From a virus, in IMG/VR virus record IMGVR_UViG_3300044691_000355, positions 68,773 through 132,772 of that record: DNA of 64,000 nucleotides; one strand, given 5' to 3'. The notes below the pieces were generated by a model. That model was given only the letters and a program-made list of their open reading frames with translations. It was not told the DNA's origin and made no database searches. The position numbers and the translations under genes are program-made. Positions 12,225-33,190 of the stretch are shown one piece after another. Position 1 is the first letter of the stretch. Each line of letters opens with the position of its first letter.

Positions 12225-12776
12225 TCACGCAATCGCCTCGACGAATTGCGCGATTCTGTTGGCCCATCCCAAGGCGTTGTCGGCCTGCAATTCAAAGCCC
12301 GCCAGCTTTGCCAGCGCCAGTTTGGCGTCATGCGTCACCAGCGCGCCGTAGAGGCGGATCCGCGCACCGCACACCAGCATGCGCAGCGCCAAAGGGTCAT
12401 GAGAATTGATCGCCGACAGCGAGACAGGGCCCAAATGGCCATCGGGAAATACGCCAACCGCACGCTGCACCATCTTGGACGCCTCTTCCTGGCTATGCTG
12501 GACCCCGGCATCGACCACCAGCGCCTGCAGGTTGTGGTCCGTAATCTGGCCGAACCCTGGCGCGTCGACGTACATGTGCTGGTAGATGCTGCGCGCCGTC
12601 TGTGGGTCCAGCTTCCTGAGGTCGTCCACCGACGTAGCCGCTGGCGCACGGTAGGCGCGTAGCGTCGCGAGCGTGATGCCGCAGCACGTGGGACCCCCTT
12701 TGTCGTCCGGCCGGTCGGTGAACTTCACGCCTTCGGCAACCAGGATCGCGTCGATGATGTCGCTGGCCAGGATCAC
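12225..12776 (-). CDS. Endolysin, glycoside hydrolase family 108
   Basis: AEG...DRPDDKGGPTCCGIT, VDAGVQH, GWANR; GTG start coupled to upstream gene. Confidence 0.85.
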   Translation of the reverse strand: MILASDIIDAILVAEGVKFTDRPDDKGGPTCCGITLATLRAYRAPAATSVDDLRKLDPQTARSIYQHMYVDAPGFGQITDHNLQALVVDAGVQHSQEEASKMVQRAVGVFPDGHLGPVSLSAINSHDPLALRMLVCGARIRLYGALVTHDAKLALAKLAGFELQADNALGWANRIAQFVEAIA

Positions 12777-12964
12777 GCGTGCGGTCCACGAATCACGTAC
12801 CCAAGCAGCGTTCCGATGAGTAGCCCAACTGCCAGCGCTATGCATACGAGCACGATCGCTTCCTCGCGATTCGCCGCGAACCACAGTTTTGCTTTCGACG
12901 TTTGCTTGTCGAGTTCGGCTTTGGCCGCTGCCTCAGCCTTTTTTTCCAAGTCAGATAAGCCCAT
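12773..12964 (-). CDS. Small tail-anchored membrane protein
   Basis: Charged helix followed by C-terminal TM. Confidence 0.6.
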   Translation of the reverse strand: MGLSDLEKKAEAAAKAELDKQTSKAKLWFAANREEAIVLVCIALAVGLLIGTLLGYVIRGPHA

Positions 12965-14160: not shown

Positions 14161-14625
14161 TTAGCCCACCGTGCCCCAAACTTCGGTCGTCGTGCAGCTA
14201 TTGCCGCTCCCTGATAAGGCCGCGCCAGAGTCGTTCTTAACTACAATCTTGAAGTACGGTGGTGGCGTACCGCCAAAAGCCGCGGCAACAGAAAACTGTC
14301 GGCGCACTAACTCTGAGTTGTTCGGGCAAGGCATCACGCCGAGTACCTGCATCATCGTATCGTGCGTCGTGTCGGTGACGCCGGAATTCGCGGTGTCGTA
14401 ATTAGTGCCGTCGCGACTGCCGATGATAAAGATAATGATCTGCTTGTTGCCGGCAACCGTGCCGACGGTAACGCCCAACTCGAGGATCACGTCCAGCGGA
14501 TTATCAGTGCTGATCTGAAATGCGCTACTGGTCGCATAGTTTGGACCTGCCGCCAGCGAATTGAGCGTGATCGTCAACGCCGCCGCCACGCTGTTATAAC
14601 TAGCTTTTACTGCACTGCTTGGCAT
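14161..14625 (-). CDS. Virion structural protein (beta-sandwich)
   Basis: Beta-rich, GAGG RBS, in tail module. Confidence 0.65.
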   Translation of the reverse strand: MPSSAVKASYNSVAAALTITLNSLAAGPNYATSSAFQISTDNPLDVILELGVTVGTVAGNKQIIIFIIGSRDGTNYDTANSGVTDTTHDTMMQVLGVMPCPNNSELVRRQFSVAAAFGGTPPPYFKIVVKNDSGAALSGSGNSCTTTEVWGTVG

Positions 14626-18191: not shown

Positions 18192-18757
18192 CAGGGTGCT
18201 CTTCCTAAGATGCGCATGGTCAAGGTCACTGGCTCCGTCACCCAATTGTCATCGTTGGCGTAATGGTTGAGCACCGTGCCGTCGTAGCGCTCGCGGATGT
18301 TTTTTAAGCCTGAGCCAACGCACACATTGATCATGATCACTTGAAAGCCAAGCGTTGTCGCGTAGTTGGGCCACCACTGCACGGGTGTACCTGTCACAGG
18401 GTCAGGTGGGTTTTGCCAGAATGCGAGTACATGACGCAGCCACGTGGCGCTGACGTTAGGGTCATTAATCCAGTGCTCCTCGACGATTACGTCGCGGATA
18501 TCGCCCTGCCACAGCGTGTTGATGGCGCCTTGCAGCGTCTTCTGCGTGCTCCACGTCGGCGCGATGATCACGTCCTGGTCGAGATTCACCCACTCATCCG
18601 GCGAGTAGTCGTAGTCAAGGGTGCCAAGCGTCGGATGAATCAGCCGACCGAGGCCGGTGCCAGGCGAGATGAGCGGCAGGATCGGAATCGGTACGGTTTC
18701 GGTGACGACAGAACCCGCACCGATGGTAAAGGTAGAGGAACTTGAAAGTGTGCTCAT
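18191..18757 (-). CDS. Tail tip structural protein
   Basis: Coupled within tail operon. Confidence 0.6.
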   Translation of the reverse strand: MSTLSSSSTFTIGAGSVVTETVPIPILPLISPGTGLGRLIHPTLGTLDYDYSPDEWVNLDQDVIIAPTWSTQKTLQGAINTLWQGDIRDVIVEEHWINDPNVSATWLRHVLAFWQNPPDPVTGTPVQWWPNYATTLGFQVIMINVCVGSGLKNIRERYDGTVLNHYANDDNWVTEPVTLTMRILGRAP

Positions 18758-20325
18758 GAGTGGTGTGCCGGTGCTGATAGGTAGGCCACGTTCGTCGTGT
18801 TGCCGCTGTTGTCTTCAATGCTCAAGCCGCCGATCGTCGCGCCGCTGACACCAAGATCAGCCAACGGAATCTCATACACGGTGTAGTTAGGCGAACCGCT
18901 GCTCCAGTTGATGCCGTAGTCCGCATCGCAGTAGGTGAGGCTTCCCGCGGAGATCGTGATCGGTGTGCCGGTGGGTGAACCTGAAGTGTCGTAATACTGA
19001 ACTTTCCAGTCATTGCCGGTCAGTGTCGGCGTGATTGCGAAGGTCAAATGAGTATGCGGCGTAAGATCGAAGCCGCCCGCAAAGTTCACGCGCCACTTGG
19101 CGTGGGCGGCGGTCATGGTGAGTTTGATCGCCTGCATCTGCGTTTGCAGCCAAGTACTGCAACAGCTTTGGCCGGTGAAATTGCCGCCCGGCGAGCTGAC
19201 CGTCCACGACGTACCGGAACCGCTGGCTATCGTGCCCCACACGACGGGCTGTGCGCCGGTCTGGAAGTAGACTAATTGCTCACCGATGACGGGCGTAGAG
19301 CCTGTCAACCCCGATATCGTCAAAGCCGAACCGATTAGCGTGCCGGTGAAAGAATTGGCCTTTGGCGGCTGATTGCACGAGTACAGCGCGGAGTTGACGG
19401 TGGTCGGATTGAACGCATAGTTCGCGGTTAGGCCTGTGCTCGCATCCGTCCATCCCGCTTGAAGTCCCGCAACGTTCGGATCACCGTTGTGAATCCACGA
19501 AAGATTTCCGGCGACAAACTGAACGTTGTCCAATTGAAAACTTAGGCCAGTCGGGAAATTGCCATTGTCTTGCATCGCGAACTTGTAGTAGTTTCCCGAA
19601 CCCAGCACGCCGAAAAATGACAGCGGGACCTTCAAGCCGGTAAGCCACGTGTTAGGCGTCAGCGTGCCGATGCCGGGAACGTTTGGCAGCGAGTTGCAGT
19701 AGGCGCAGACATTGATGTCGTTGCCAGTCGAGCGGGTTGCGTGGCCGCTGACGCCGATGTTCGACCCAGTGGCGCAGTACAGGTCAAACTGCAGGTACGT
19801 ATACTGAGATATGTCCTGTCCGTTCGGGGGCGACACCGCCCAGTTGGTGGCCTGCTGCCAGCCGCTAGCCGGATGCACCAAATTAGATTGGGTATGACCA
19901 GGTTGCGGATTCCCGGTGTAATTATAATCGTGCGCCGGTGTGGCGCCGTACGAGTAATCAGTAAACGCAGGCCACTTGCTCGTATCAATCACGCCGTTCG
20001 AGTACATCATCAAATTGCCGCCGCCGCCGATGATGTATGAGGCGCTGCCGATGGAACTTGGCGTATGGCCCGGCGCGGTTGCGAGCACTCTAAGGATTTG
20101 GCTTGAACTCACCGTGATCGGTGTCGCATACACCGTACTTCCGGTTGTCGGCGTCGAACCGTCGACGGTGTAGTACATCGTGTTACTTGGCGTCGCACAC
20201 GATGGTGTCACGGTCTGCGCAGTTAAATATGAACCGGCAGCTGGCGAGAACGTGGGTGTCGCCGTTTGCGGAAGCGATGCCGCGACCACGTTTAAGTGAT
20301 ACGTCTTCGTGATCGAGCTTGGCAT
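18754..20325 (-). CDS. Virion decoration/adhesin: FN3-associated (chitobiase C-term-like) domain plus two CBM-like domains
   Basis: ATPTFSPAAGSY..YYTVDGSTPT; DISQYTYLQFDL and FDLTPHTHLTFAI..YEIPLADLG. Confidence 0.7.
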   Translation of the reverse strand: MPSSITKTYHLNVVAASLPQTATPTFSPAAGSYLTAQTVTPSCATPSNTMYYTVDGSTPTTGSTVYATPITVSSSQILRVLATAPGHTPSSIGSASYIIGGGGNLMMYSNGVIDTSKWPAFTDYSYGATPAHDYNYTGNPQPGHTQSNLVHPASGWQQATNWAVSPPNGQDISQYTYLQFDLYCATGSNIGVSGHATRSTGNDINVCAYCNSLPNVPGIGTLTPNTWLTGLKVPLSFFGVLGSGNYYKFAMQDNGNFPTGLSFQLDNVQFVAGNLSWIHNGDPNVAGLQAGWTDASTGLTANYAFNPTTVNSALYSCNQPPKANSFTGTLIGSALTISGLTGSTPVIGEQLVYFQTGAQPVVWGTIASGSGTSWTVSSPGGNFTGQSCCSTWLQTQMQAIKLTMTAAHAKWRVNFAGGFDLTPHTHLTFAITPTLTGNDWKVQYYDTSGSPTGTPITISAGSLTYCDADYGINWSSGSPNYTVYEIPLADLGVSGATIGGLSIEDNSGNTTNVAYLSAPAHHS

Positions 20326-20335
20326 TAGATATTCC

Positions 20336-23113
20336 TCATGAACTGTCCGTGAGCGTCACAGCAATGGTGTTCATCGATGTGCTCATCGGCGGCATACCGG
20401 TTATCGTCCATGTCGTCGTATCGCTACTAATCGTCGGCGGCGTTGCCCATGACGGAACCCCTGTAGCGCCCCATACATACGGCTTCACGCCACCACTGCC
20501 GGTGAGCGTTTGCGTATACGCCACGCCTTCTTCTGCATCGGGGAAATCTGGCGATGGCTCCATATCCAATGGATCTGGCGTCGGCGCGACACTGCCGCTC
20601 CAATAGGTGTAGTCGAGCGTGCCCGCAGGATCGCCCGCAGATCCAAATATCTGCACGGCAGCCGATGCAGAAATAACCGTGGTCGTGCCGCGATTCAGTT
20701 TCAGTATCGGAGTACCGGCTGCGAGCGGCATCGTGTACACGCTCAATCCGGCAGCAGCCGCGAACGTTGCGGATGCCGTCCCCACGCTGATCGTGATCGT
20801 GCCCGGCGCCGTCAGCATCGCGACCACTTCTATCAGATCGGACGGCGTACCAGCGACGCACGTGAAGTTGTCCACTTGACTCGGATGCGCGGCGCCGATC
20901 GGCATGCGTCTATAAAAATAGTACAGCCGATCTGCAACAATGGTCGGTGGCGATCCGGTCAAATACGATGCGGCGTAATACGCGCCCAGGTCTGAAAACC
21001 CATTGCCCATGTTTGGATTCAGCGTCGCATCCGTGCACGGCTGGATTTGGCTTGACTCTGAGAAGTCGCTCCACGTCACATACTGCACCCAGTCCGAGCC
21101 GCCATTAATCGCGCTCTCCCACGACTTGCGCATGGTTTGGCTATTGTTAGCTTCCCAAAATATTTGGTCTTTCGACCTGAATTGCTGCATCGAAATCGGC
21201 ATCATGTACTTGAGGCCGTTGCCGTGGGCGATCGTAGGATTCGGCTGTAGCGCGATCGCGGCACTCGGTATCGCGGTTCCCCATGCGCCGAGGCCATAGC
21301 TCACCGGATCAAGAGAACCCGCATCGGACGGACCACCGAGCAACACAGGAATGAATTTGGTGGTGATGCCAGCGCCAGCCAAAGTGGTCATCATCGACGT
21401 CCAATACGATGCCGCCTGCAGGTCTGCCTTATAGGCCGCGAATAAAATCTCACCGGTCGATAGCGTGTAGATGCATGGCTTGCTGGCGACCGCTTCAATA
21501 ATCGACGCTGCGTCTGCCGCGCTGATCGCGCCCAATGACACCATGTCGAGCATGACCATAATCATGAATCGAGCGTCAACCACCGCAGCCGCCGCCAACA
21601 ACGTTTGCAGTTTGCCGGTAGGGCTCAAGGCATCGGCGAGATTTAAGACATCGAATGCGAACGCCGTGATGCCGCGCGCCATCGCCATGCGAACTTCAGT
21701 TTCCATGTTGTCTTGCACGTAGGTGCTTGGCGACCCAGGCACTACCGGCAGCGGCCGCTGCCGCAAATAGCCGCCGTATGCCTCGTGACTGCCTGCCTCG
21801 CCCAGGGGGTCAAGAAACTGATTGTTGTAGTAGTCCATCGCCGCTGGCAGGTTGTCGAACGACAGTGGGAAGAAACCAAAATAATGGGCAAATACGACTT
21901 TGGATGACCCGAACATCGTGGCCAAATCCGGCATCAGGAAGGGCAAGCCAGCGACAACTCCACCTCCGCCGCCACCACCTCCGCCGCCACCACCTCCGCC
22001 GCCACCACCTCCGCCGCCGCCCGTTCCATCATCGAGCGACGCCGTCACGACTACAGTTCCCGAGTCTAGGTCCGTCATCATGGAAACCGCCTCACCATCG
22101 CCATCGGTGATTGCCGGGAAGCCCACGAATTCGACGATATCGGTACTCGGCGTGAAATCGATGATGGCACCGCCGATCGGTTCTCCAAGATCACCGAACA
22201 GGCGTGTCAACACCGGCACTGAGTTGTATTTGCGCGGTGCTGCTAGCGGAATCGGGTCCATCAAGCCGGTAGCAATCGGCATCGGAAAATAGCCGTTGAT
22301 CGTGCTGGTGTTTTGCCCAGTGGTATCTGGCGGCGTGTAAACCCAGGATAAAAAGCGTCGATACTTCGTGTCCCACGTGACGGTGACGCCAGGTAGCGCT
22401 GGATTGAACGCATCTTGAATCCGAAAGGAGGACAGCACGATGCCTAACGTGTAGTCGATCAAGCACATCACATGATCCGCGGTCATCACGTAGCAGCGGC
22501 CCGTGGACTCAGGCATGATCTGCACCAGATTGGCGGGCAGCGTGACGGTGCTAATCAATGCGCCTGTGGCCAAATTGTGGATACGCAACTGATTGGCGAC
22601 GTTCGCGCCCAGCAGCACTAAGTTATTGGAGGCGTCAATATTGAAAGCATCCACCGACGTAATGCCCGCGAACAACGAGAAGTCAAAAGCCACGACGCCA
22701 TCGCTGGTGACGCCAAGCACAGGGTCCACCTGGCACTTGAAGACTTTAAACGTCTCATCACAGCGGTAGATGGTGCCGTCGAGCGCTTGCGCGAATCGCG
22801 AGAAAATAAACAGCGTTGCTGTCGAATCGATGCGGCCTAAGTATTCACCTGTGGTCGCGTTGAAGCGATACAGCGTGTAGTTAAAGCCTGGAAAGAACAC
22901 CATGTTTTGCGTAAGCCACAAGTAGATCACTTCGTAGCCGTCAACCAATTGCTCTTGGTTCAAGAAAATGACCGTGACACCTAAGCCGTCATACTCTTCG
23001 CCATAGATGCGCGGCGGCGTGGTCAACTCGGAGTGATAGATTTGCGCGCCGCCCGAGATGTTTCCTGGCAAGCGGTAAGCGAAGGGCTGAGATTGAAAGG
23101 TTTCGAGCAGCAT
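20336..23113 (-). CDS. Tail protein: propeller-like N-term, poly-Gly linker, GH71-like glucanase domain, C-terminal Ig-like domain
   Basis: KVVFAHY, GITAFAFD, QYVTWSDFSESSQIQP, LYYFYR motifs of GH71; He_PIG-like C-terminus. Confidence 0.75.
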   Translation of the reverse strand: MLLETFQSQPFAYRLPGNISGGAQIYHSELTTPPRIYGEEYDGLGVTVIFLNQEQLVDGYEVIYLWLTQNMVFFPGFNYTLYRFNATTGEYLGRIDSTATLFIFSRFAQALDGTIYRCDETFKVFKCQVDPVLGVTSDGVVAFDFSLFAGITSVDAFNIDASNNLVLLGANVANQLRIHNLATGALISTVTLPANLVQIMPESTGRCYVMTADHVMCLIDYTLGIVLSSFRIQDAFNPALPGVTVTWDTKYRRFLSWVYTPPDTTGQNTSTINGYFPMPIATGLMDPIPLAAPRKYNSVPVLTRLFGDLGEPIGGAIIDFTPSTDIVEFVGFPAITDGDGEAVSMMTDLDSGTVVVTASLDDGTGGGGGGGGGGGGGGGGGGGGGVVAGLPFLMPDLATMFGSSKVVFAHYFGFFPLSFDNLPAAMDYYNNQFLDPLGEAGSHEAYGGYLRQRPLPVVPGSPSTYVQDNMETEVRMAMARGITAFAFDVLNLADALSPTGKLQTLLAAAAVVDARFMIMVMLDMVSLGAISAADAASIIEAVASKPCIYTLSTGEILFAAYKADLQAASYWTSMMTTLAGAGITTKFIPVLLGGPSDAGSLDPVSYGLGAWGTAIPSAAIALQPNPTIAHGNGLKYMMPISMQQFRSKDQIFWEANNSQTMRKSWESAINGGSDWVQYVTWSDFSESSQIQPCTDATLNPNMGNGFSDLGAYYAASYLTGSPPTIVADRLYYFYRRMPIGAAHPSQVDNFTCVAGTPSDLIEVVAMLTAPGTITISVGTASATFAAAAGLSVYTMPLAAGTPILKLNRGTTTVISASAAVQIFGSAGDPAGTLDYTYWSGSVAPTPDPLDMEPSPDFPDAEEGVAYTQTLTGSGGVKPYVWGATGVPSWATPPTISSDTTTWTITGMPPMSTSMNTIAVTLTDSS
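21959..22021 (-). repeat. 15-bp tandem repeat (GGCGGCGGAGGTGGT, ~4 copies) encoding 21 consecutive Gly
   Basis: Directly visible. Confidence 0.95.
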
Positions 23114-24039
23114 CAGAAGTTAAACTGCGCGTCGACGGCGACGCTTCCCGATGAGCCCACAGGGATGATCAATGTGTTGATGGCGGTCCCAGTGGCATCG
23201 GTCGCGCTTTGTGGTTCAGCCAATGTTCCGGTACCCGACCCAATTGACCAATTGATCAATTCGCCTACACACGGCTCACTTTGCGCGCCGAGTAATTGCA
23301 CGCTGACTTGAGAGGCGATACCTGCCCCGACAGAAGGTGAGGCAACAGGGTTTGATAACGAATCCGGTGCCGTCGCATCCGCCAAGATTTTTATCTGCTG
23401 AGATTTCATCTCGACAAAGACATCGTACTTCGGCACATACCAACAGCCGTCTGGCGCCTCACCGATAAATAACGTCGCGCCAATTTGCGTTTTTAAGGAC
23501 ACATCATAAAAGCGTATCTGCCCGGCATTGAAGATGAGGCAAATTTCGGTGGTCGAGCGCCCGCGCGACACATTGACCAGCGTGCCGCCCGTGAAAGGTG
23601 CGGCAAAGGTGTACTCAGGCGTAAACGTCGTGCCGTCGTGCGTGGCCAGCACTTGCACATCGGAACCGGTGTTATAGAAAGCCAAATACCGATCCGCTGC
23701 GATCACCTTGATGCGAAATACTGAAACGCCCGTGAGCAAAGAAACTGGGTCCGGATTGCCAGCCAGATAATTGAAGTTGAAAAGATCCGTGACCGTGGCG
23801 ACCGCAAGACCGCGGACACTGCGAAGGTCGAGGACGGGGCTAAAGCTCGAGCCGTTGAAAGTGCTGCGCGGACCTTGCGCATTGCCGTCCATCTGCACCG
23901 CGTAGAATCCATAGGCTGAAACAGGATTTACTACTGCCAGCAGCCCCAACCCCCGCATCCACGTATAGCCGGTGACGGATGCGACCGGCACACCGCCGAC
24001 GTTGACATTCACAGGTCCGTATAAGACCTCAAGCGCCAT
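23113..24039 (-). CDS. Tail protein with C-terminal Ig-like (Big_1-type) domain
   Basis: GELINWS..GTL..STDATGTA. Confidence 0.65.
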   Translation of the reverse strand: MALEVLYGPVNVNVGGVPVASVTGYTWMRGLGLLAVVNPVSAYGFYAVQMDGNAQGPRSTFNGSSFSPVLDLRSVRGLAVATVTDLFNFNYLAGNPDPVSLLTGVSVFRIKVIAADRYLAFYNTGSDVQVLATHDGTTFTPEYTFAAPFTGGTLVNVSRGRSTTEICLIFNAGQIRFYDVSLKTQIGATLFIGEAPDGCWYVPKYDVFVEMKSQQIKILADATAPDSLSNPVASPSVGAGIASQVSVQLLGAQSEPCVGELINWSIGSGTGTLAEPQSATDATGTAINTLIIPVGSSGSVAVDAQFNF

Positions 24040-24250
24040 ACTGCGCCTCGATCACCGCCGTGGTGCCGGATGTACCTGGGACGTACTTCGCCGCAGCTCG
24101 CCCCTGGGCATCGGTGAAATGAGTGATCGGCGTTAAGGTGCCGTCTCCGGAGGCGATCGACCACGTAACCGCTCGATTCGGCAAGCCTGACAGCACCACC
24201 ATAGCCCCGGTCGAATCGGCGTAGACGCTGGACGGATAGACGGTCAGCAT
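24029..24250 (-). CDS. Small stand-alone Ig-like tail protein
   Basis: VTWSI..GTLTP..TDAQGRA. Confidence 0.65.
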   Translation of the reverse strand: MLTVYPSSVYADSTGAMVVLSGLPNRAVTWSIASGDGTLTPITHFTDAQGRAAAKYVPGTSGTTAVIEAQYGA

Positions 24251-27200
24251 CAGCGTTTCGCGTACGCGTCGACGATGTAGCGGTCGATGAAATCCTGCAT
24301 CGTCATGTTCGCGTGTTCAGACGACAGGACCAAATTGACAGCGGTCGGAGCGCCCTGGCCGGCGTAGCGTGGCGCGCCGACGCCTCCAGACACTTGCCCA
24401 GCCGCTCGTGGCATCGACACGCTTGGCGTGTTCGTGGCGGGCGCCGCAGGTAGCACGATGCCGCCGTCGGCATAGCCTTGCGCAGAGAACATCCGTGGCA
24501 CGGCGTAAGCGCTGCCGAGCTGCGCCAGCCTGCCGGTGCTTTCAGGCCCGGTCGGGCCGCCCGGATAGACGAAGCCGCCGCTGGAATAGCCGCCCTCGCC
24601 CCAGGACGACACCGCGGCCATGCCCTTGTCATTGAAGGCGGTCAGGAACTGCATGGCCCCTGGCTGACTCACCACTTCGGCCCGATGCACGAATTCACCG
24701 GCATGCACGACGCCTGCAGGCTCGTATTTGCCGCCGGCCCCGGTGTAGCCGCCGGCGTCGTAAACCGGTGGCAACGTCGAGGCAAGGCCTGAGATGGTAG
24801 TGGGATCCAAGGCTGGCGCGGTGGCTGAGATGGCGCCGCTAGTCAGGTCCGGACCCGCACCGCTCGAGGGTCCTTTGAGCCCCTTCGTCGCTATGCCCGC
24901 GAGGCCCATCACCAATGAAAAAATGCCCTTATCGCTGTTCGTTTTGCTGTAGGTATTACTGCCGCCCGCAGCCAAGCCCGTGCCCGGTTGTGTCGCGGCG
25001 TTACCCAGGCTGGCGATAAATTGGGTGATCGTCTGTCCGGCGATCTGCCCGCCTTGCGCCATCGAGGCGGTAAGCGTGCTACCCGCTTGGTTGCCGCCCG
25101 TGTTGAGCGCCGTGTTGATCGTGGCGCCGACCTGATTGACCGATGTCGGCGAGATTGTGGCGGCCGGCGCATCCGCGGGGGTCAATCCCGAAAAGGCAGG
25201 CGATTTGACCGCGCCGCCATCGGCGTAGCCAGCTCCCTTGACGAACCCGCCGCCCGCGTAACCAGCGACAGCTTGCATGCCGCGATCGTTGAAGTCAGAC
25301 AGGAATGACAGCGCGCCGGGCTGCCTGACGACCTCAGCGCGGTGCACGAACTCCTGGCCATGCACGATGCCCGCCGGTTCTCGCGTACTACCTGAGCCCG
25401 TGTAGCCGCCCGTGGCAAGGGGCACCAACAGCGATGTAGCGTCCGGGCTTACCGCAGGCGTCCCGCCGCCAAGCCCGAACAGAGGGCCTAAGTCGCTTCC
25501 GCCGACAGAGCTCGGATTGGCGCCCGACAGCGATTCGGTGATGGCGGTCGCCAAGGTGGTCGCGCCGGTCGCGAAAGATGCGCTTAAGGCCGTCGACACG
25601 GTGCTCGAGCCAGCGGTGAACGCCGCTGAGATGGGCGCCGCGCTGGCCGCCGCACCCGCGATCCCCGTGGCACCGGCAACGCCAGCCGTCGGCGGTTTGA
25701 TACCGAAAAACCCAGCAACGGACGGCAGCACGCCTGCAAAGCCACTCGGCTGCGCGCCACCTGGAGCCGATCGAGGGCTGAACAGTGACGTGCTCAAATC
25801 GTTGACCAGCCCCTTGGTGAACGTCGAGACAAAGGCATGCTCCAGCGACTTCTCGATATTCTTGACCGCTTGATTGGCCGTCTCGGTTTTCTCGATCACG
25901 CCATCGAGCGCGGAGGACACAGAGCTTTCAAACGCGCCCTTCATCGCGGCGGTCAGTTCGCTTGTGTGCGTCTTAAGCTCAAGTATCTTGAGGCTTAGCT
26001 CACCGATTTTTTCACGGTACGCATCGGCCGCTGGTCCGCTTTGCGCATTGGCCAATGCCTGGTAGATCGGGATTTGTTTAGCGAGTGATTCAGCTTCGGC
26101 ATCGTTAGCGGCGATGATTTTTTGTTGAGCCGCGGCGTGCGAGATTAACCCGGCAGACTCTTCGATCTGCACGGTCTTGGACACCGTGGCGTTGGCCTTT
26201 TCCGAAACAGAGATGGCTTTGTCAGCCTCGGTGGCCTTATCGGCAAGCTGAGCCACCGCTTGTAATTGCGTGGTCGCATCCTTCAACTGACCCACAAGTC
26301 CGATAAACGCGGCCTTGCCGGAAGCCTGGGATTCGGCTTCCAAGTCCTTGAGCGTCCTATCCCACTGTTTATGAAACGCATCGATTTCGGATTGCGCCGT
26401 GTTGCCTTGAAGCCGGGCGGTCTGCGCCTGCACACCTTCGATCTGGCCCGGCAATGTGGCCTGATCTTTTTCGGCACGAAGGTCGGCCGCTGCCTTGTCG
26501 GCCGCTGCGGCGTCGGCGAGATACTTAGTTCGCAGCGACAGGGCGGTATTGATGCCTGCGGCGGTTTTTAAGTACTCATTCGCAGCGTCAACGTTTTTAG
26601 TTTCCGCAGAAGCAAGGCCCGCGGCGACGGCGAGGCGCTCAGATTCCGTGCGACTGATTTCCTCTTGCAAGGTAAGGTCTTTGGCATTTAGCGATTTGTC
26701 TGCGGTGGCACCTTGCTCGGCGACATCGGCACGCGTGGCCTTTTGAAACAGCACCGCGCGTTCCGGCTGGCTGATCTTGGAGGCTTTGGTGGCATCCGCG
26801 AGGTATATCTTCAACGCCTCGACGTTCTTATTCTCATCCGCGACCAGACCTTGGGAGATGTTGCGCCGCTCGTTTTGCGCGCGGTTGATCGCTTCATCCA
26901 ACTGCAGGCTCTTTTCCTTGAACGTGTTTTCCTGCTTGCCGAGCTGCTGGTTGATCGCGGTAATACGATCTTGGAATACCGCGCGATTCGCAGGATCAGT
27001 GATTTCACCCGGCGTATTCAGGGCCTTTTGCAGCGCCTCACGCTTTACGATCAGTTCTTGTATGACGGCTGATTGCGAGCGCAAGCCTTGCGTCAATTTA
27101 TCGACGCGCTGAAATTCTTGGGCGAGCGATGCTGCGGTGGCTTGTGATTGCGCGGTAGCGGCTGCTTTCGAGGCGGTGTTGGCTTGCTCGGTACCGGTGC

Positions 27201-29124
27201 TTGCCGTGACACGACCCGGGCCGCCTGCCGTGGTCTGCGCCCTGCCTGCCAATGCCTGTAATGGGCCGGGCAGAATGGCGGTAATCGCCGGATTGGCGAA
27301 TATGGCTGCAAAGGTATCATCCAGACCCTTGCTGCCATCGCGTACCGCATTGATGGCCTTCGCCATGGCGTTGAATGATCCGGTCAGCGTGGCAAGCACA
27401 CCCGTGATCACTGCTGACTCTGAGAACTGCGTCGATGCGCCGTGCCACGCATTGCCGAGATTTTGAATCGAGGTCTGAAGCGGCGTTAGGTTCTGCTGTG
27501 CCAACCCCTTCGTTTTTTCCTGCAAGGCATCGATAAGCGCCGCGCTGGCTTCGGCTTCCTTGCCCTCATTGTGCAAGCGCTCAATGGTCAACTGCTGATC
27601 CGGGGTGAGCGCAATATGCGCCTGCTGCAAGCGGCGCAGACCTTCGATCGGGCTTTCGAGCGCTCCCGACAGAACTTTCGCAGCTTCCGGTACCTTGACA
27701 CCGAGCGCTGCGGCTAGATCACCGAGAATCGATGCGGCTTCCTTAAATTGAGCCACGTCCGCGAACGGCGCACGGACCAACGCATCAACCGACGCAGTGG
27801 CTTCCCCGCGATTGACGCCGTGCAATTGCTGGATGAGATCGATGGTCTGGCGAATCTGATCATCCGAGACCAACGCGCTTTTGCCCGTCGCGGTCAGTGC
27901 AGTCTGAATGAGTTTGACAGACTCGGCGGCCTTTTCGGCCTGATAGCTGAGGACGCCCAACGTTGCTGCGGTTGCGGTAGCCGCGACGCCTGCGATGATC
28001 AGTGGGCTAGACAATGCCGCCATCGCAAGCGCAGCGAGATTGCCTTGCTGCGCGAGAAGCGTGAACGATCCTGGGATTCGCGAGTAACGACCCGCCGACA
28101 ACTCGCGCAAGATCGTGAGGCTTTCACGGATCTGCAGCGAACTCAACTGCACGGCCTTACCGCCTTCCTTGACGGCTTTGCCAAGCAAATCTTCGGCCTT
28201 GGCTGCGGCTTTCGCTTCGGCTTCACTCGCCTGCAGCGCGGTCAGCTTGTTGGCGAGACCCACTGCCAGCGTCGATTCTTCCTGGCTTAAGCCTGCCTGC
28301 GCCGCGCGGTAGGCGGCGACTTCTGCGGGCGATTTACCGAACAGGTCAACTTGTTCTTTGAGTCCCGCGGTGAGCGGCGATAAATTCGTATTCGCGGCTT
28401 GCGCCGCGCGGCCAACGTCGGCATACGCCGTCTCCATCTGCTTGTTCTGCGCGATGACAGTGCCAGCGGTACCGGTAAAACTGCTTGCCGCGCGCTCCGC
28501 TTCAGTGACCGTGTTGCTGAGCGAAGCGGAACGGATGATGGCCACGCGCTTAAGTTCGTTCTCAACTGCCGCAGTCGCCGTTTCCGCAGCAACCACACGC
28601 TCCGCCGACGCAGAGAGCGCCTTGCTGTCATCCTCGATCTGCTTGGCATCGCTCGCCGCGGCGACGCCTCCGCCAGCCGCTGGATTGATAGCGGCGGCCA
28701 CCGATGCAACCGCGACAGCAGTGCGGTCCGGTATCGCACCAGCCGGGGCAAGCTCAGCCGGCGTCTGCGCAACAAAACGCCCGCTGGCATCCCGCCCAGC
28801 TCGCGCGGTGGCCTGCTGCGCACTCGCAAGATTCTTCTCAGCGCTCGCCGCCTGGTTGGCCGCTGTCGCTTCATCCTTGAGCTTTTGCGCCAACTGGCTC
28901 GAGCTGCTGATCTCTTGCGTGGTGGCTTTGGTGGCGTCGGTTACCGCCGACGTCATCGCTTTGGTTTGCGACGTGGCGGAGGACTGCGAACCCTTCAACG
29001 CATTGGTAGCCGCATCCGCACGCGCAGCCGATGCCGTGAATTTGTCGAGCGCCGCAGCTCCTGCAGTTGCACTGGTCGCATCGACTGCGATCTTTAGGCC
29101 AGCGACTTCGGTTGACTCAGCCAT
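24250..29124 (-). CDS. Tape measure protein
   Basis: >1600 aa Ala-rich helical; lambda gpH-like motifs (TLLAQQG; GGYTG..EPAGxVH.EFV); start MAESTEV at 29124 after GAGGG. Confidence 0.92.
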   Translation of the reverse strand: MAESTEVAGLKIAVDATSATAGAAALDKFTASAARADAATNALKGSQSSATSQTKAMTSAVTDATKATTQEISSSSQLAQKLKDEATAANQAASAEKNLASAQQATARAGRDASGRFVAQTPAELAPAGAIPDRTAVAVASVAAAINPAAGGGVAAASDAKQIEDDSKALSASAERVVAAETATAAVENELKRVAIIRSASLSNTVTEAERAASSFTGTAGTVIAQNKQMETAYADVGRAAQAANTNLSPLTAGLKEQVDLFGKSPAEVAAYRAAQAGLSQEESTLAVGLANKLTALQASEAEAKAAAKAEDLLGKAVKEGGKAVQLSSLQIRESLTILRELSAGRYSRIPGSFTLLAQQGNLAALAMAALSSPLIIAGVAATATAATLGVLSYQAEKAAESVKLIQTALTATGKSALVSDDQIRQTIDLIQQLHGVNRGEATASVDALVRAPFADVAQFKEAASILGDLAAALGVKVPEAAKVLSGALESPIEGLRRLQQAHIALTPDQQLTIERLHNEGKEAEASAALIDALQEKTKGLAQQNLTPLQTSIQNLGNAWHGASTQFSESAVITGVLATLTGSFNAMAKAINAVRDGSKGLDDTFAAIFANPAITAILPGPLQALAGRAQTTAGGPGRVTASTGTEQANTASKAAATAQSQATAASLAQEFQRVDKLTQGLRSQSAVIQELIVKREALQKALNTPGEITDPANRAVFQDRITAINQQLGKQENTFKEKSLQLDEAINRAQNERRNISQGLVADENKNVEALKIYLADATKASKISQPERAVLFQKATRADVAEQGATADKSLNAKDLTLQEEISRTESERLAVAAGLASAETKNVDAANEYLKTAAGINTALSLRTKYLADAAAADKAAADLRAEKDQATLPGQIEGVQAQTARLQGNTAQSEIDAFHKQWDRTLKDLEAESQASGKAAFIGLVGQLKDATTQLQAVAQLADKATEADKAISVSEKANATVSKTVQIEESAGLISHAAAQQKIIAANDAEAESLAKQIPIYQALANAQSGPAADAYREKIGELSLKILELKTHTSELTAAMKGAFESSVSSALDGVIEKTETANQAVKNIEKSLEHAFVSTFTKGLVNDLSTSLFSPRSAPGGAQPSGFAGVLPSVAGFFGIKPPTAGVAGATGIAGAAASAAPISAAFTAGSSTVSTALSASFATGATTLATAITESLSGANPSSVGGSDLGPLFGLGGGTPAVSPDATSLLVPLATGGYTGSGSTREPAGIVHGQEFVHRAEVVRQPGALSFLSDFNDRGMQAVAGYAGGGFVKGAGYADGGAVKSPAFSGLTPADAPAATISPTSVNQVGATINTALNTGGNQAGSTLTASMAQGGQIAGQTITQFIASLGNAATQPGTGLAAGGSNTYSKTNSDKGIFSLVMGLAGIATKGLKGPSSGAGPDLTSGAISATAPALDPTTISGLASTLPPVYDAGGYTGAGGKYEPAGVVHAGEFVHRAEVVSQPGAMQFLTAFNDKGMAAVSSWGEGGYSSGGFVYPGGPTGPESTGRLAQLGSAYAVPRMFSAQGYADGGIVLPAAPATNTPSVSMPRAAGQVSGGVGAPRYAGQGAPTAVNLVLSSEHANMTMQDFIDRYIVDAYAKR

Positions 29125-29811
29125 TGCTCGATTTCCCTCTAATCCCATCCAACGTCATCAGTGCCATCGCTTCCCACGGTGCGAGCCGCCGTCCTGTCAT
29201 CGCACACCACGCCTGAATCGACTGCCAAGTGATCGTCCCTGTCGAAAACTCCTGCAAATACTCGATCAAATACGCGAACTCTGCAGGCTGCTCTGTGAAC
29301 GTAATGCCTAGCCGGCTTTGCGCTCTTTCAACATCGGCAGCTCCGATATGTCGCTCACTGGCACCTGCGAGTCGGCGTCGCTCGTCGGCCCAGGCGTAGA
29401 GGCTGGCGAGTCGAGGCCGAAAAAACGGCTGCGGTCCGTCGTGACGTTCGGAATCGCGAGCTTGATGGTCGGCGAGTTCTCCAGCAGCGCGCGCAGTGCC
29501 GTGGGTGTGAACTCATCCTCGAAGCTCCAGCCGATCACCAGCTTCTCGACGTAATCGACCAGCAGTTCATCCGCCAGCGCGTCGCGCAGTTCTTTGTCTT
29601 CATCCTTCTCGTCGGTTGCATCCTTTGGCGCCGAGGACTTCAAGTCCGCAAGTCCGCGGTTCAGTTCCGCGACCGCTTTGCCGAACCGCTTGCTATCGGG
29701 CCCGATGACCAAGAGCCATTCGTCAGACTCTGTTTTGCCGTCTGCCTTGAGCAAGGGGACCTTGATTCCCGCTTCGCTTTTCGGAACCGTGTAAAAATCT
29801 GTGACCTTCAT
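29117..29811 (-). CDS. Tail assembly chaperone gpG (29308..29811) and -1 frameshift product gpGT (ends 29117)
   Basis: Slippery T TTT TTC at 29425-29419; -1 frame open to TGA 29117, encoding ITWQSIQAWCAMTGRRLAPWE..LD. Confidence 0.85.
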
Positions 29812-30365
29812 TCGCCTGCCCTCTTAAGTGATTTCACCGCGTCTTTTGCTTGATCGCCGCCACTGAATCCCAAACTGACGTCCACGATGCGCGCGACTCG
29901 TTCGCGGCTCGACAGCCTGCCGATGGCATCGTGGAATAAGTACACCTGGCGCAAGGTGTAATTTCTGATCTTGTCGAGCGTGTGGCCGTGGGAGATGAGG
30001 CCCTGCATGACGCTCGACCAGCGCTCGGTTGAGCGTCCTGGCTTCGGCGCTTCCTGCGTAAACCAACTCTTGTTCGCGCGCTCGAACGTAACGGCCAGCG
30101 CCGTCAACGTCGCGTCATTCAAACCGGCGATTTCCAGCGGATCGCGACCGCAGTTCTCCGCGATCAGATAGATGAGGTCCGCGCTATCGCCTTCCTTGTA
30201 TTTATCAACCGCTTTGCGCGCCGCTTCGCCTAAGCGCAGGCCCTCGATGATGGTGTACTCGTGTATTTCGTAGCGAATAGAGGACACGGAGACGGAAAAC
30301 TCCGGGAACAGTATCTCGAAGTCTTCCGCCCCGCGGTTTACCCGCGGCGCGATCTGCCGCGCCAT
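29808..30365 (-). CDS. Second tail assembly chaperone-like protein (G- and T-like parts in one frame)
   Basis: Position after tail tube; EDFEILFP N-term; W...LISHGH...I..YT..Q..F C-term. Confidence 0.6.
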   Translation of the reverse strand: MARQIAPRVNRGAEDFEILFPEFSVSVSSIRYEIHEYTIIEGLRLGEAARKAVDKYKEGDSADLIYLIAENCGRDPLEIAGLNDATLTALAVTFERANKSWFTQEAPKPGRSTERWSSVMQGLISHGHTLDKIRNYTLRQVYLFHDAIGRLSSRERVARIVDVSLGFSGGDQAKDAVKSLKRAGE

Positions 30366-30368
30366 TGA

Positions 30369-31127
30369 CTACACTGCTACTTCGTTGGTGACGATCCGCC
30401 CGAATCCACCCATGTTGGCGATATTCGCGTTGATGGTGTCGTACAGGATTGCGCCGGTAAGATCGAAGCCGCCCCAGTCGGCATCAATCAAGCCAAACAC
30501 CTTCGCAGGCGTGAACTGCACTCGGAACAAATCCACATGCACTGCATCGCCCGTGAACGTGTTGACGCCATCGAATATCACGTACCGCTCTGGCGGCGTG
30601 ACCTGGCTCATCATTTCGATTGCCTCGACCGTCGCGTAGGTATATGCAGCGTGGTACGGCTGCACACCGATGGCTGTAAGCATCGTCACGACGCTACCGG
30701 TCAGGGAGTAGTCGGTGCCCGCCACGAGTGTGATAGGTGAGCCGGTGCTATCGGTTATCACCAGCGCGGAAACGGCCGTATTCGCGAGTTGCACCGCATC
30801 TCCAGCGACGAGACCAGTCGGGAATGCTTCCGCCGTTACCGTGCCACCTGCAATCGATGCCTTTGAACCGTACAGAGCCAACACGAGATTTTCCCAATGG
30901 AACTCGGTAATTGACATGTTCAATTCGCCCTTGCGCTCTTTCATGAGGCGGCCATACAGCAAGCGCTGCCCACTGAATGACTCGTACTTGTCGCTGATGT
31001 TCGGCGTCAAAGCGACTTCGGCTTTTTCGGTGTTGCCGAGCCAGGTCAGCTTGCCGGGCTTGCCGGTCGTGCCGTCGCGCAAAGCGGTGTACACCTTGCC
31101 CTGTAGAGAAAATAATTGGTTAGACAT
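30369..31127 (-). CDS. Major tail tube protein
   Basis: AGGAG RBS, MSNQLFSLQGKVY..WLGN..; VDLFRVQFTP. Confidence 0.8.
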   Translation of the reverse strand: MSNQLFSLQGKVYTALRDGTTGKPGKLTWLGNTEKAEVALTPNISDKYESFSGQRLLYGRLMKERKGELNMSITEFHWENLVLALYGSKASIAGGTVTAEAFPTGLVAGDAVQLANTAVSALVITDSTGSPITLVAGTDYSLTGSVVTMLTAIGVQPYHAAYTYATVEAIEMMSQVTPPERYVIFDGVNTFTGDAVHVDLFRVQFTPAKVFGLIDADWGGFDLTGAILYDTINANIANMGGFGRIVTNEVAV

Positions 31128-31253
31128 CGCGGTAAAACTCCTAGGAAATATAGGGGGGTTAAAACGGACCTGGTATTCAACGTTGCCGCAGTCACCGACC
31201 GCGAAGAAACACCCGGCCGCGCACCGCGAGGCCAGAAACAAAAAACTGAAAAC

Positions 31254-31826
31254 TCAAACTTTCGCATCGCGAATGATTCCCCCGATGCGCGCAATATTCG
31301 TGCGGACCATGCCGTGTGGCGCTTGCCGCGAGTAGCCACCGCTCGAACGGATTTCGTAGACTGCTGGTTCGCGCGTTCTGGAACCCAGTGCGAGCGATTG
31401 CCGCAGGCCGATGTTGCCGGAAAAGCCACTGAGGCCAAGCGAACTCACCGCCGCACCGCGACTGACGAGCGTCCCGCGCTTCGGCGGATTCGGGTATCCG
31501 CCGAATTCGAGCACGGTGATGTAGGGAAGATTGTTGGTGAGCCACGTGATCTTGCCTGCGCCGCCCATGTTGGCTGTGATCTCGCCAATCGCAGCAGAGC
31601 CAGATGGGTCCAAGCGCTCCACCGTGCCGGTCGCGGCAGTTCCAACGGTCGTCTGCCAATTTCCGCGTGCTCGCCCGGTGTCTACAGGTGTCGCCTTGAT
31701 GATTCCGCTGAACAGAGCCAAAGTGATGCCGCGCACGTTCTTATCGACGCTCCCCTTCGCCTTCTTCGCCCATTCGGCGACTTGGAGGCCGAAAGAACCG
31801 CCTTGCAAATTGATGGTATCTGCCAT
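31254..31826 (-). CDS. Neck/tail completion protein (HK97 gp10-like)
   Basis: TPVDTGRARGNW, NNLPY..LEFG, SRQAPHGMV. Confidence 0.85.
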   Translation of the reverse strand: MADTINLQGGSFGLQVAEWAKKAKGSVDKNVRGITLALFSGIIKATPVDTGRARGNWQTTVGTAATGTVERLDPSGSAAIGEITANMGGAGKITWLTNNLPYITVLEFGGYPNPPKRGTLVSRGAAVSSLGLSGFSGNIGLRQSLALGSRTREPAVYEIRSSGGYSRQAPHGMVRTNIARIGGIIRDAKV

Positions 31827-31829
31827 GGA

Positions 31830-32102
31830 TTACTCGCGCGGCGCGTTGAATCCGGCATTGATGTTGATCGTCACTTGCCGAAATCCTTCCGGTGTCGCAT
31901 GAACAGAGCCGTTCACCGACAACCCGCAGTCACACGTCGGATCATCCATCAGCACATTGGTGAACGCCGCGACCGCTTCGCGCGCCGCTGGCATATCGGC
32001 GGCGTGTACAGGCTGCGCCAGCAAGATCGCATCGAACTGCTCGTTCGCCAGGGTGACGGCTTCCGCCTTCGTGGCGGCCTTTACTGAAAATGAATAGCTC
32101 AT
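31830..32102 (-). CDS. Small hypothetical protein inserted in neck module
   Basis: AGGAG RBS, 90 aa. Confidence 0.7.
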   Translation of the reverse strand: MSYSFSVKAATKAEAVTLANEQFDAILLAQPVHAADMPAAREAVAAFTNVLMDDPTCDCGLSVNGSVHATPEGFRQVTININAGFNAPRE

Positions 32103-32120
32103 GTTTATTCTCCTGTGATT

Positions 32121-32534
32121 TTAAGAAAATTCCCGATCGACGCTGCCGTCGAACGTGATGGATACCGCTGCGCTTTGATAGCCGCCGTAAATGCGGATCA
32201 CGCCATCATCTGATTTCTTGACGCGCAATTTTTGCGTACCCGCCGTGTTGGTGAATAGCCGGCGCGGCTTGTAATAACTCAAGATCTGATCGATCAAGCC
32301 GGCCAGATCCCCGGTGCCAACATTCATGTCGCCATTGCAGTCGACCTGCAAAATGCGAATGTACTTATCGGCGGTTTGCAGGCGCTGATCGCTGCTGACC
32401 GGCATGATCGTCGCGTAGGCCCACAACCCAGCATCGGGCGGAGTAAACGCAACACCCTCATAGCCGACCGGACACGCCAGTCCTAAATCCTTGAAGGACT
32501 TCATGATGACGCCGTTGAGCGCGGTGATGCTCAT
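32121..32534 (-). CDS. Tail terminator-like protein
   Basis: EGVAFTPP..LW, ILQVD; position in neck cluster. Confidence 0.7.
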   Translation of the reverse strand: MSITALNGVIMKSFKDLGLACPVGYEGVAFTPPDAGLWAYATIMPVSSDQRLQTADKYIRILQVDCNGDMNVGTGDLAGLIDQILSYYKPRRLFTNTAGTQKLRVKKSDDGVIRIYGGYQSAAVSITFDGSVDREFS

Positions 32535-33190
32535 TTGCGCATTGTCAGCACGTAGGCGATGGCTACTGTGGTCGGCTTGATGATCTTCGGCTCACTTAAG
32601 ATCTGCCACGTCTCAGAGCTATCAGCGAGTGACAGAACGATGGTATCCATCTCGGTGTCCATCGGCGGCGTGCCAGATAGCGTCCAGGTCGTGGTATCGA
32701 GACTGATGGTCACCGTTGCCCACGAGGGCACGCCAGTGGCCGACCAGATGTAACGTGGTGTGCCACCGATTGCGGTTTTGGTCGCGGTGTAAAACACGCC
32801 TTCGATCGCATCCGTAAAGTCGGCATCCGGCGTCATCGTCAGCGCCACGGCGGGAACGGGTACGACGATCTTGTCGGTGAGCAGGGGCTCGACGGTGCTG
32901 CCGTCAGGGTTCACAGCCGCGATGATCATCTGCCGATCCTGGCTTAAGACGTCGCTTACTTTCGCGACACCGCCGACGCCGCGGCCAACCACTTGATAGT
33001 CCGCGGAACGCGCCTGCCACAATCCTATCGCCGGCAAATCTACTGTGGTCTCGCCCGTGATTTTCCCTGACTCTGGATCGTAGGTGCCGGGCACTTTACG
33101 GCGCACGATTACGGGCATGCCGCTACCTTTGGGCGGTGGACTGAGCAGCCGCGTCGCAATCTTAGCCATTTTGTTGTAGTCGATCGCCAT
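32531..33190 (-). CDS. Head closure (stopper) protein with inserted Ig-like domain
   Basis: GTYDPESG, P..DKIV / TWQI..IKP..YVLTMRK interrupted by ~77-aa He_PIG-like insert (32615-32845). Confidence 0.75.
   Translation of the reverse strand: MAIDYNKMAKIATRLLSPPPKGSGMPVIVRRKVPGTYDPESGKITGETTVDLPAIGLWQARSADYQVVGRGVGGVAKVSDVLSQDRQMIIAAVNPDGSTVEPLLTDKIVVPVPAVALTMTPDADFTDAIEGVFYTATKTAIGGTPRYIWSATGVPSWATVTISLDTTTWTLSGTPPMDTEMDTIVLSLADSSETWQILSEPKIIKPTTVAIAYVLTMRK

Follow-up and report, generated by a model that had tools for sequence, protein, structure and literature searches.

A small Ig-like domain probably divided between two adjacent tail genes of a metagenomic phage of siphovirus type, with a possible second docking site in its head-closure protein

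Introduction

Why should a phage tail gene end inside an immunoglobulin (Ig)-like domain, one β-strand short, and the next gene open in another reading frame with a sequence resembling that strand? The question is raised by a stretch of 64,000 nucleotides (nt), here called the window, that corresponds to bases 68773-132772 of the 132,772-base IMG/VR virus record IMGVR_UViG_3300044691_000355 (CheckV completeness 96%). Here the gene of a tail protein, P0002, is directly followed by that of P0001, a predicted carbohydrate-binding protein, and a second copy of the truncated domain is inserted in the head-closure protein, P0003. An earlier note, made from the letters of the window, had suggested that P0001 clips onto both P0002 and P0003 by its N-terminal strand. 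We call this N-terminal segment the plug and the truncated domains sockets 1 and 2. The features concerned are listed below in window coordinates (aa, amino acids; AF2, AlphaFold2; CBM, carbohydrate-binding module).

18754-20325, minus strand: P0001, 523 aa, starts MPSSITKTYHLNVV
20278..20325, minus strand: plug, first 16 codons of P0001 (MPSSITKTYHLNVVAA), candidate for the missing strand G
20050..20244, minus strand: CHB_HEX_C_1 / Fn3_assoc β-sandwich of P0001, residues 28-92 (Pfam, E 1.1e-15 and 7.4e-12)
18754..20013, minus strand: CBM-like β-sandwich region of P0001, residues 105-523 plus stop (AF2, Foldseek)
20326..20338, minus strand: junction; the TGA stop (20336-20338) overlaps the Shine-Dalgarno GAGGA (20333-20337), with a 10-nt spacer before the ATG
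20336-23113, minus strand: P0002, tail protein, 925 aa
22022..23113, minus strand: N-terminal anchor region of P0002, residues 1-364, with a Big_1-like domain at 308-364
21959..22021, minus strand: 21-residue glycine run of P0002, residues 365-385, a tether between the GH71-Ig module and the N-terminal anchor
20666..21739, minus strand: GH71 (alpha-1,3-glucanase family) catalytic domain of P0002, residues 459-816 (Pfam PF03659, E 1.4e-34)
20339..20590, minus strand: socket 1, C-terminal He_PIG-type Ig domain of P0002, residues 842-925, ending after strand F
32531-33190, minus strand: head-closure (stopper, Hc1) gene P0003, 219 aa (phrog_161, E 2e-10)
32615-32860, minus strand: socket 2, He_PIG-type Ig insert of P0003 without strand G, residues 111-192 (82 aa)

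Results

The two sockets are homologous and stop before strand G

The domain at the C-terminus of P0002 and the insert of P0003 share 56/107 identities by BLASTP (E 3e-24), in agreement with what the earlier note had read from the sequence, and, searched in six frames, the whole record yields exactly two copies, of which the second is 62% identical (E 4.9e-25). Identity between the two lies at 60-62%. Tail and stopper copies, when relatives are included, are mutually 54-66% identical and show no clean split into two groups. A phmmer search with the 84-aa socket against 1.84 billion representative proteins retrieved 2176 proteins at E ≤ 1e-3, and 148 of the best 150 have 5-46 tandem copies. All four of the relatives that were scanned are He_PIG proteins (E 4e-80 to 3e-139), their repeats spanning profile positions 3-95.

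In such repeat proteins the stretch after the equivalent of the sockets' final DSS reads, for example, IELTDAAS followed by VVTTKAFTLTVDPA. P0002 ends in VTLTDSS, then TGA. Two more metagenome proteins, P0182 and P0262, terminate at TLTDSS, and the C-terminus of socket 1 is conserved in P0124/P0182 and P0262. The insert of P0003 ends in SLADSS and is followed by ETWQILSEPKII; since eight insert-less stopper homologues of 132-139 aa read through from DDKVVVEG into QAWQILSEPKII, the residues after DSS in P0003 belong to the stopper core and are not a strand G. The AF2 model of P0003 (mean predicted local distance difference test, pLDDT, 77.4) places six strands in the insert, at residues 118-120, 134-141, 147-152, 159-162, 168-173 and 185-190. 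By VIA-align, residues 112-192 resemble cadherin-like and I-set Ig modules, and five single-domain Ig chains of 96-99 residues (7y4x_B, 2wp3_T, 6hci_A, 7y95_B and 4x5l_A) align to the insert only up to their residues 82-90, as predicted for a domain whose last strand is missing. The claim that both copies stop at DSS without strand G is thus borne out by these six modelled strands and by the assignment of ETWQILSEPKII to the stopper fold. In Pfam the tail copy has no He_PIG match, and the last ~19 positions of the profile are without counterpart in the socket. Sequence and model together indicate that both sockets are truncated He_PIG derivatives, homologous to He_PIG repeats and with six strands, not seven, rather than complete members of the family.

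The start of P0001 lines up with the missing strand

The start of P0001 lies 13 nt past the first base of the P0002 TGA, one base out of the P0002 frame, with GAGGA 7 nt ahead of the ATG at 20325. No start codon precedes this ATG in its open reading frame (ORF), either in the window or in a second IMG/VR contig, L003, that is described below. P0001 is probably made as a separate protein, with translational coupling likely since the stop codon of P0002 overlaps the ribosome-binding site of P0001. A database copy of the protein, P0004 (474 aa), has been called from Met50, a start that cuts CHB_HEX_C and conceals the plug. Automatic gene calls may often miss such plugs.

To compare the plug with genuine last strands we used a log-odds matrix built from the 20 residues that follow each of 828 repeat copies (773 distinct) in 148 multi-repeat homologues. 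In this alignment Pro2 of P0001 occupies the first column after Ser925 of P0002, and the four most informative columns (K/R/Q, F/Y, L/I and I/V) are filled, in that order, by K7, Y9, L11 and V13. The N-terminus of P0001 scores 9.0 and ranks third among 812 ORFs of at least 60 aa in the genome (mean -4.2, standard deviation 4.6). The observation of the earlier note that the next gene, with its own GAGGA and in a different frame, opens with a match to the missing strand holds to the residue, and the alignment indicates that the He_PIG domain is cut without loss or gain of residues. The AF2 model of P0001, from a 14-row alignment (mean pLDDT 81.2, predicted template modelling score 0.82), shows folded β-sandwiches from residue 25 on; residues 1-18 have pLDDT below 50 and no secondary structure.

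Other candidate plugs were considered. A blastp-short match, MPSSAVKASY, in a 154-aa ORF (window 14161-14625, minus strand) after a 517-aa fibre-like gene shares its first four residues with the plug, probably by chance, and reaches only 4.3 on the matrix. The 161-aa ORF at genome position 5122 has an antisense gene overlapping it and does not look coding. A 90-aa ORF of the neck region scores 7.8, only when a wider offset range is allowed; it lies between the tail terminator and Neck1 (window 31830-32102, minus strand), starts with the strand-like MSYSFSV and could be an alternative plug for the neck socket. By matrix score and gene context, the genome contains one credible plug.

The junction is conserved in a second tail type

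Contig L003 (genome G001, a 29.6-kb fragment without a stopper) encodes a plug protein, P0005, that is 81% identical to P0001, behind the same junction: TLTDSS, TGA, 10 nt, ATG and MPSSITKTYHLNVV. TGAGGA and the 10-nt distance are identical in the two contigs, 3/10 spacer bases differ, and the last three differences before the stop are all at third positions and synonymous in the upstream frame. Among plug codons 1-14, eight are identical, six are synonymously changed and none is changed non-synonymously. Over codons 1-16 the rate of non-synonymous substitution (dN) is 0.028 and that of synonymous substitution (dS) 1.30; over codons 17-95, the CHB_HEX_C region, the values are 0.255 and 1.13. 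By this comparison, purifying selection acts far more strongly on the plug than on the adjoining domain.

In L003 the socket protein is P0124 (770 aa). It shares the module of poly-Gly, GH71 and Ig with P0002 and is anchored by a DUF2460 distal-tail-protein domain, and the remaining tail genes of the contig are RcGTA-like (a second DUF2460, a Gp84_N hub, NlpC/P60 and Phage-tail_3). Because module and junction are the same and the anchor is different, the two-gene cassette would have moved between tail types with the split intact. The glycine run of P0124 has 13 residues (214-226) where P0002 has 21. As a homopolymer tether the 21-Gly run is unusually long, and its position is kept across the two different anchors. 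At 3045-5990 of L003 two DUF2460 paralogues are adjacent, the second fused to GH71 and the socket, an arrangement of the 'evolved Dit' type.

Among homologues of the CBM part, the N-terminus takes three forms. The plug stands alone there in P0005, P0006 and P0007, and P0007 has lost CHB_HEX_C and kept the plug directly ahead of the CBM region. In the distant homologues P0032 and P0039 complete He_PIG domains are fused in cis at this position, with VNDSLGAPASKVFNITINAASANL (E 1.6e-20, profile positions 4-96 of 96). The bacterial homologues P0009, P0012 and L004 carry a lipoprotein signal peptide at the plug position.

The proposed partners are a GH71 protein and a predicted lectin

The GH71 domain of P0002 matches Schizosaccharomyces pombe Agn1 (8yfh_A) with E 1.1e-14 over chain residues 8-376, nearly the whole chain. 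For P0001, a sequence search of PDB chains gave no match at E 0.01; Foldseek related the body of the model to CBM8 (7t7y, E 8.2e-7, template modelling score 0.78 on the target), CBM51, CBM22 and CBM11. The carbohydrate-binding label given to the 523-aa protein in the earlier note is thus upheld by fold likeness, and the models depict P0001 as a multi-CBM, lectin-like, predicted carbohydrate-binding protein.

The stopper carries a second socket

P0003 is a head-closure or stopper protein (PHROG 161, Hc1) by profile, fold and position. Its gene is flanked by those of the Ad1 adaptor and the tail terminator; its AF2 core aligns by VIA-align with 9jlf_C, an FCWL1 head-to-tail chain (Z 11.0, root-mean-square deviation 3.2, 115 residues aligned), and with chain 6tba_3A of a gene transfer agent (Z 8.6); and Foldseek matches it to the stopper of phage 812. 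Among 16 relatives, P0003 counted, the Ig insert is found in five, an unrelated insert of ~65 aa in two (P0135 and P0137) and no insert in eight; the other, P0139, matches through the Ig part alone. The unrelated insert occupies exactly the stopper hairpin that carries the Ig domain in P0003 and has no Pfam match at E ≤ 1, so that this loop is, from the comparison of sequences, a hot spot for displayed domains. Identities in insert versus core are 74% vs 77% for P0126, 62% vs 59% for P0129, 56% vs 69% for P0127 and 74% vs 95% for P0125. Constraint on the insert, measured as identity, is comparable to that on the stopper core in three of the four comparisons.

The complex prediction proposed in the earlier note was made for the stopper insert only. 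Stopper residues 100-205 and plug residues 1-30 scored 0.44 (runs 0.44, 0.45 and 0.44), the best of three controls scoring 0.01, with at least 91% of contacts in agreement between runs and a partner pLDDT of at least 58. Of the solved complexes, 116 of 157 reached the mark, and of the mismatched pairs 2 of 215, counts that are only rough, our own alignments having been used; at 0.60 or under lie 18 of the 157 solved complexes and both of the passing mismatches. The result is weak support, and the pass may reflect likeness to complete Ig domains.

Two observations speak against docking at the neck. AF2 folds the six-stranded insert without a partner, with block means of pLDDT of 70-92 over residues 111-200. 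In P0135 and P0137 this site is taken by an unrelated insert, an indication that the loop can simply display a domain. That P0001 docks on the neck stopper as well, as suggested by this one complex prediction and by the homology of the two sockets, is a tentative proposal that we would sooner doubt than accept. The wider scheme is no firmer: the strand-less He_PIG domain might be a portable docking socket that was copied from the tail enzyme into the outward hairpin of the head-closure ring, so that a single plug serves two sockets and P0001 is recruited to tail tip and neck in the form of a collar of sugar-binding whiskers. For the co-occurrence of insert-bearing stoppers with plug genes, the contigs compared were G001, which is without a stopper, and G002 and G003, which are without the tail region.

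Discussion

A likely non-covalent joint at the tail

We consider it likely that P0002 and P0001 are separate proteins joined non-covalently by strand completion, which would place a multi-CBM lectin on a tail depolymerase. Of the earlier note's proposal that P0001 clips onto tail and neck, the tail half is supported by the junction in L003, the selection on the plug, its disorder in the model and the homologues fused in cis; the neck half has the weak complex pass and the homology of the sockets behind it. In the proposed mechanism, a He_PIG-type Ig domain would be split over two adjacent tail genes and the split maintained. P0002, laid out as anchor, poly-Gly tether, GH71 glucanase and six Ig strands, would be left one strand short. 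P0001, translated separately from its own ribosome-binding site, would offer a free 14-residue extension as the missing strand G, and this would insert beside strand F of P0002 and finish the sandwich, as in donor-strand complementation. Lectin-like P0001, hung on the depolymerase, would then bring glycan binding and glycan cutting together at the tail tip. The binding of P0001 to P0002, its stoichiometry and the glycan target are what we infer from the anatomy of the locus.

Several points weigh against this proposal. The matrix test is a modest one for a peptide of 14 residues, as 3 of 812 N-termini reach the score, which gains weight because the plug sits directly behind a truncated domain. 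Only four rows of the P0001 alignment contain the plug, and its disorder may partly reflect this shallowness. The He_PIG profile (PF05345) matches the stopper insert with 13.1 bits against a cut-off of 24 (E 0.13, positions 15-77 of 96). The junction has been read as DNA in two contigs only, the window and L003, and the only sequencing run that contains the stretch is probably the source sample, so that agreement between its assemblies may not be independent.

Alternative explanations

The strongest alternative, although an unlikely one, is that the strand-less domains are self-sufficient six-stranded decorations, for instance weak glycan adhesins, a role suggested for other Ig-like domains of phages, which lost strand G to fit a hairpin or a C-terminus, and that the N-terminus of P0001 attaches elsewhere or has another role. 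The confident AF2 model of the insert on its own and the use of the same stopper site by P0135 and P0137, which implies that the site displays domains as such, would both suit this explanation, and a Pfam scan finds nothing in the plug. It leaves unexplained, however, why the next gene starts in exact register with the missing strand, why 14/14 plug residues are identical despite a dS of 1.3, and why P0007 kept the plug after the next domain was lost; the same position is, moreover, that of the cis strand G in the fused homologues.

A second alternative is that ribosomes make a programmed +1 shift where P0002 ends, which would yield a single protein of ~1450 aa with a complete Ig domain in cis. 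The downstream frame is indeed +1 and open for 10 codons (window) or 19 codons (L003) ahead of the ATG, and the relevant section of a published account (PMC5009743, citing Fraser et al. 2006) gives -1 and +1 shifts as a known route to phage Ig-like extensions. Because substitutions are synonymous in the upstream frame up to the stop, however, a shift would be confined to the last codon, and the last sense codon, TCA in the window and TCT in L003, is in neither case slippery. The 7-codon stretch of overlap contains neither an X_XXY_YYZ nor a CCC/CUU_UGA motif. Between the two contigs TGAGGA, the 7-nt spacing and the ATG have stayed the same, as independent or coupled initiation would predict, and the same Met is used as start in three database proteins. 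Weak evidence comes also from the lack of a fused P0002-P0001 form among proteins of 917-2615 aa, where the best 120 of 202 matches cover 15-35% of the query, in the CHB_HEX_C part. Taken together, these observations make the frameshift improbable, and separate proteins joined by a strand the better account.

The earlier note had also likened plug and socket to a tag/catcher pair. A covalent lock by an intermolecular isopeptide bond, like that of the engineered SpyTag/SpyCatcher, has this analogy as its only support, together with the presence of Lys7 and Asn12 in the plug. Lysine is, however, general at that column in strand G of He_PIG domains (among the 773 repeats it has the highest log-odds in column 6), and the modules that the insert resembles in structure are of cadherin-like and I-set Ig type. 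Nothing in our results, in which no catalytic triad was sought, points to such a bond, which we regard as very improbable.

Least credible of all is that the split reflects a fault of assembly, or a single gene recently inactivated by mutation, suggested by nothing more than a bare stop inside a domain: the indel that the earlier note had wished to see checked at 20326-20338 does not appear in a second assembly of the run, identical over 20100-20600 at a word depth of 57, though probably from the same sample, the independently assembled L003 has the same junction at dS >1, and the plug is under purifying selection.

Known systems and what would be new

In chaperone-usher pili (Fim, Pap, Caf1 and Saf), subunits have an Ig-like fold without the C-terminal strand G, and the gap is filled in trans by the N-terminal extension of another protein. 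The donor extension has alternating hydrophobic residues and is unstructured alone. The likeness to P0002 and P0003, as acceptors with an Ig-like fold that lacks strand G, and to P0001, whose N-terminal extension fits the missing strand and is unstructured alone in the AF2 model, is evident. The differences are also clear. P0001 has a plug without a socket, and P0002 and P0003 have sockets without a plug; because no protein has both, no polymer is expected, unlike in pili. Assembly would here be cytoplasmic, and the domain is of He_PIG type, not a pilin. A PapD-like chaperone (PF00345) gave no match in the 132,772-base record (the control was positive in 3/14 genomes), and the usher was not searched for. 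By analogy, then, the P0002-P0001 joint would work like donor-strand complementation, but would not be a member of the chaperone-usher system.

To judge by the sections of PMC4742702 on this complex, the closest solved phage precedent is BppU-BppA of Lactococcus phage Tuc2009, in whose crystal structure an Ig-like (titin-like) β-sandwich is completed across two chains. As those sections describe it, an accessory protein that bears a CBM is there, as proposed here, fixed to a siphophage baseplate protein by fold completion. The polarity is reversed, however: in Tuc2009 the anchor BppU gives a C-terminal β-hairpin and the CBM protein holds the incomplete sandwich, whereas here the socket is on the anchor and a single N-terminal strand would be given by the CBM protein. 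Unlike in the present phage, with P0003, the Tuc2009 neck has no second socket in that account.

Mobile Ig-like modules on tail and head-tail proteins, some of them added by -1 or +1 programmed frameshift, and out-of-frame junctions that arise by non-homologous recombination are likewise described in the section cited above (PMC5009743). What sets the present case apart from the frameshift extensions is that the cut runs through the domain, that the second frame opens at a conserved start of its own and that a slippery site is absent. Completion of an Ig-like fold across two chains is thus already known, from pili and Tuc2009; new would be that an enzyme bears a He_PIG socket, that the two-gene cassette is mobile and that a head-closure protein contains a copy of the socket. 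A literature search, with most subscription journals outside its scope, returned no title on a donor-strand phage joint and nothing on strand complementation in virions.

Should the proposed joint work, the splitting of a small Ig domain would be a way for phages to attach accessory proteins, receptor-binding proteins or lectins, and a cassette of enzyme-socket and plug-lectin would be portable between tail architectures, as the window and L003 suggest. Such a joint would also explain the orphan-like appearance of plug genes. The stopper copy, if used, would give a simple rule by which one protein decorates two places of the virion. A natural tag of 14 residues and a socket of ~80 residues would also provide a non-covalent, genetically encoded tag-and-socket system for display on phage particles. 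For annotation, a stop within an Ig-like domain followed by a gene that starts with a β-strand deserves a check before a pseudogene or a frameshift is called.

Genomic setting and searches

Sockets and plug belong to a structural module of siphovirus type, which runs on the minus strand in this order.

minus strand: major capsid (Gp13-like), Ad1 adaptor, stopper P0003, tail terminator
minus strand, continued: 90-aa ORF, Neck1/tail completion, major tail protein with Ig-like domain, chaperones
minus strand, continued: 1632-aa tape measure, 73-aa Ig protein, 308-aa protein, P0002, P0001, more tail genes

The only sequencing run with this stretch is a soil metagenome, probably its source, and no RNA run is listed as containing it. 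In 50,697 GenBank phage records, P0001, P0003 and the shared domain were all without match. IMG/VR was scanned three times, with P0001 as query, with the socket alignment and with a degenerate DNA pattern of the plug peptide; the matches were L003 and two stopper fragments, L007 and L008, and nothing else. A metagenome scan gave two loci, both with a bacterial lipoprotein homologue of the CBM part and without a plug. In genome contigs the stopper alignment had no match, and the CBM alignment had a single one, to a homologue of the CBM part in a Labilithrix metagenome-assembled genome. GC content is 55-64%, and the named CHB_HEX_C relatives are, among the matches listed, mostly labelled Acidobacteriota (Terracidiphilus and Acidobacteriaceae). 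These labels, the GC content and the soil source hint at an acidobacterial host.

The 73-aa protein of the module (window 24029-24250, minus strand) is a stand-alone Big_1-like Ig protein (Pfam E 1e-5, under the cut-off). It was considered as a second split Ig domain and rejected, the Big_1-like domain looking complete. Its ORF begins at the final base of the tape-measure gene and shares 11 nt with the gene that follows (23113-24039). A 219-aa ORF (window 12225-12884, minus strand) located downstream of the tail genes adjoins small ORFs with hydrophobic stretches and looks, by eye, like an endolysin and lysis cassette.

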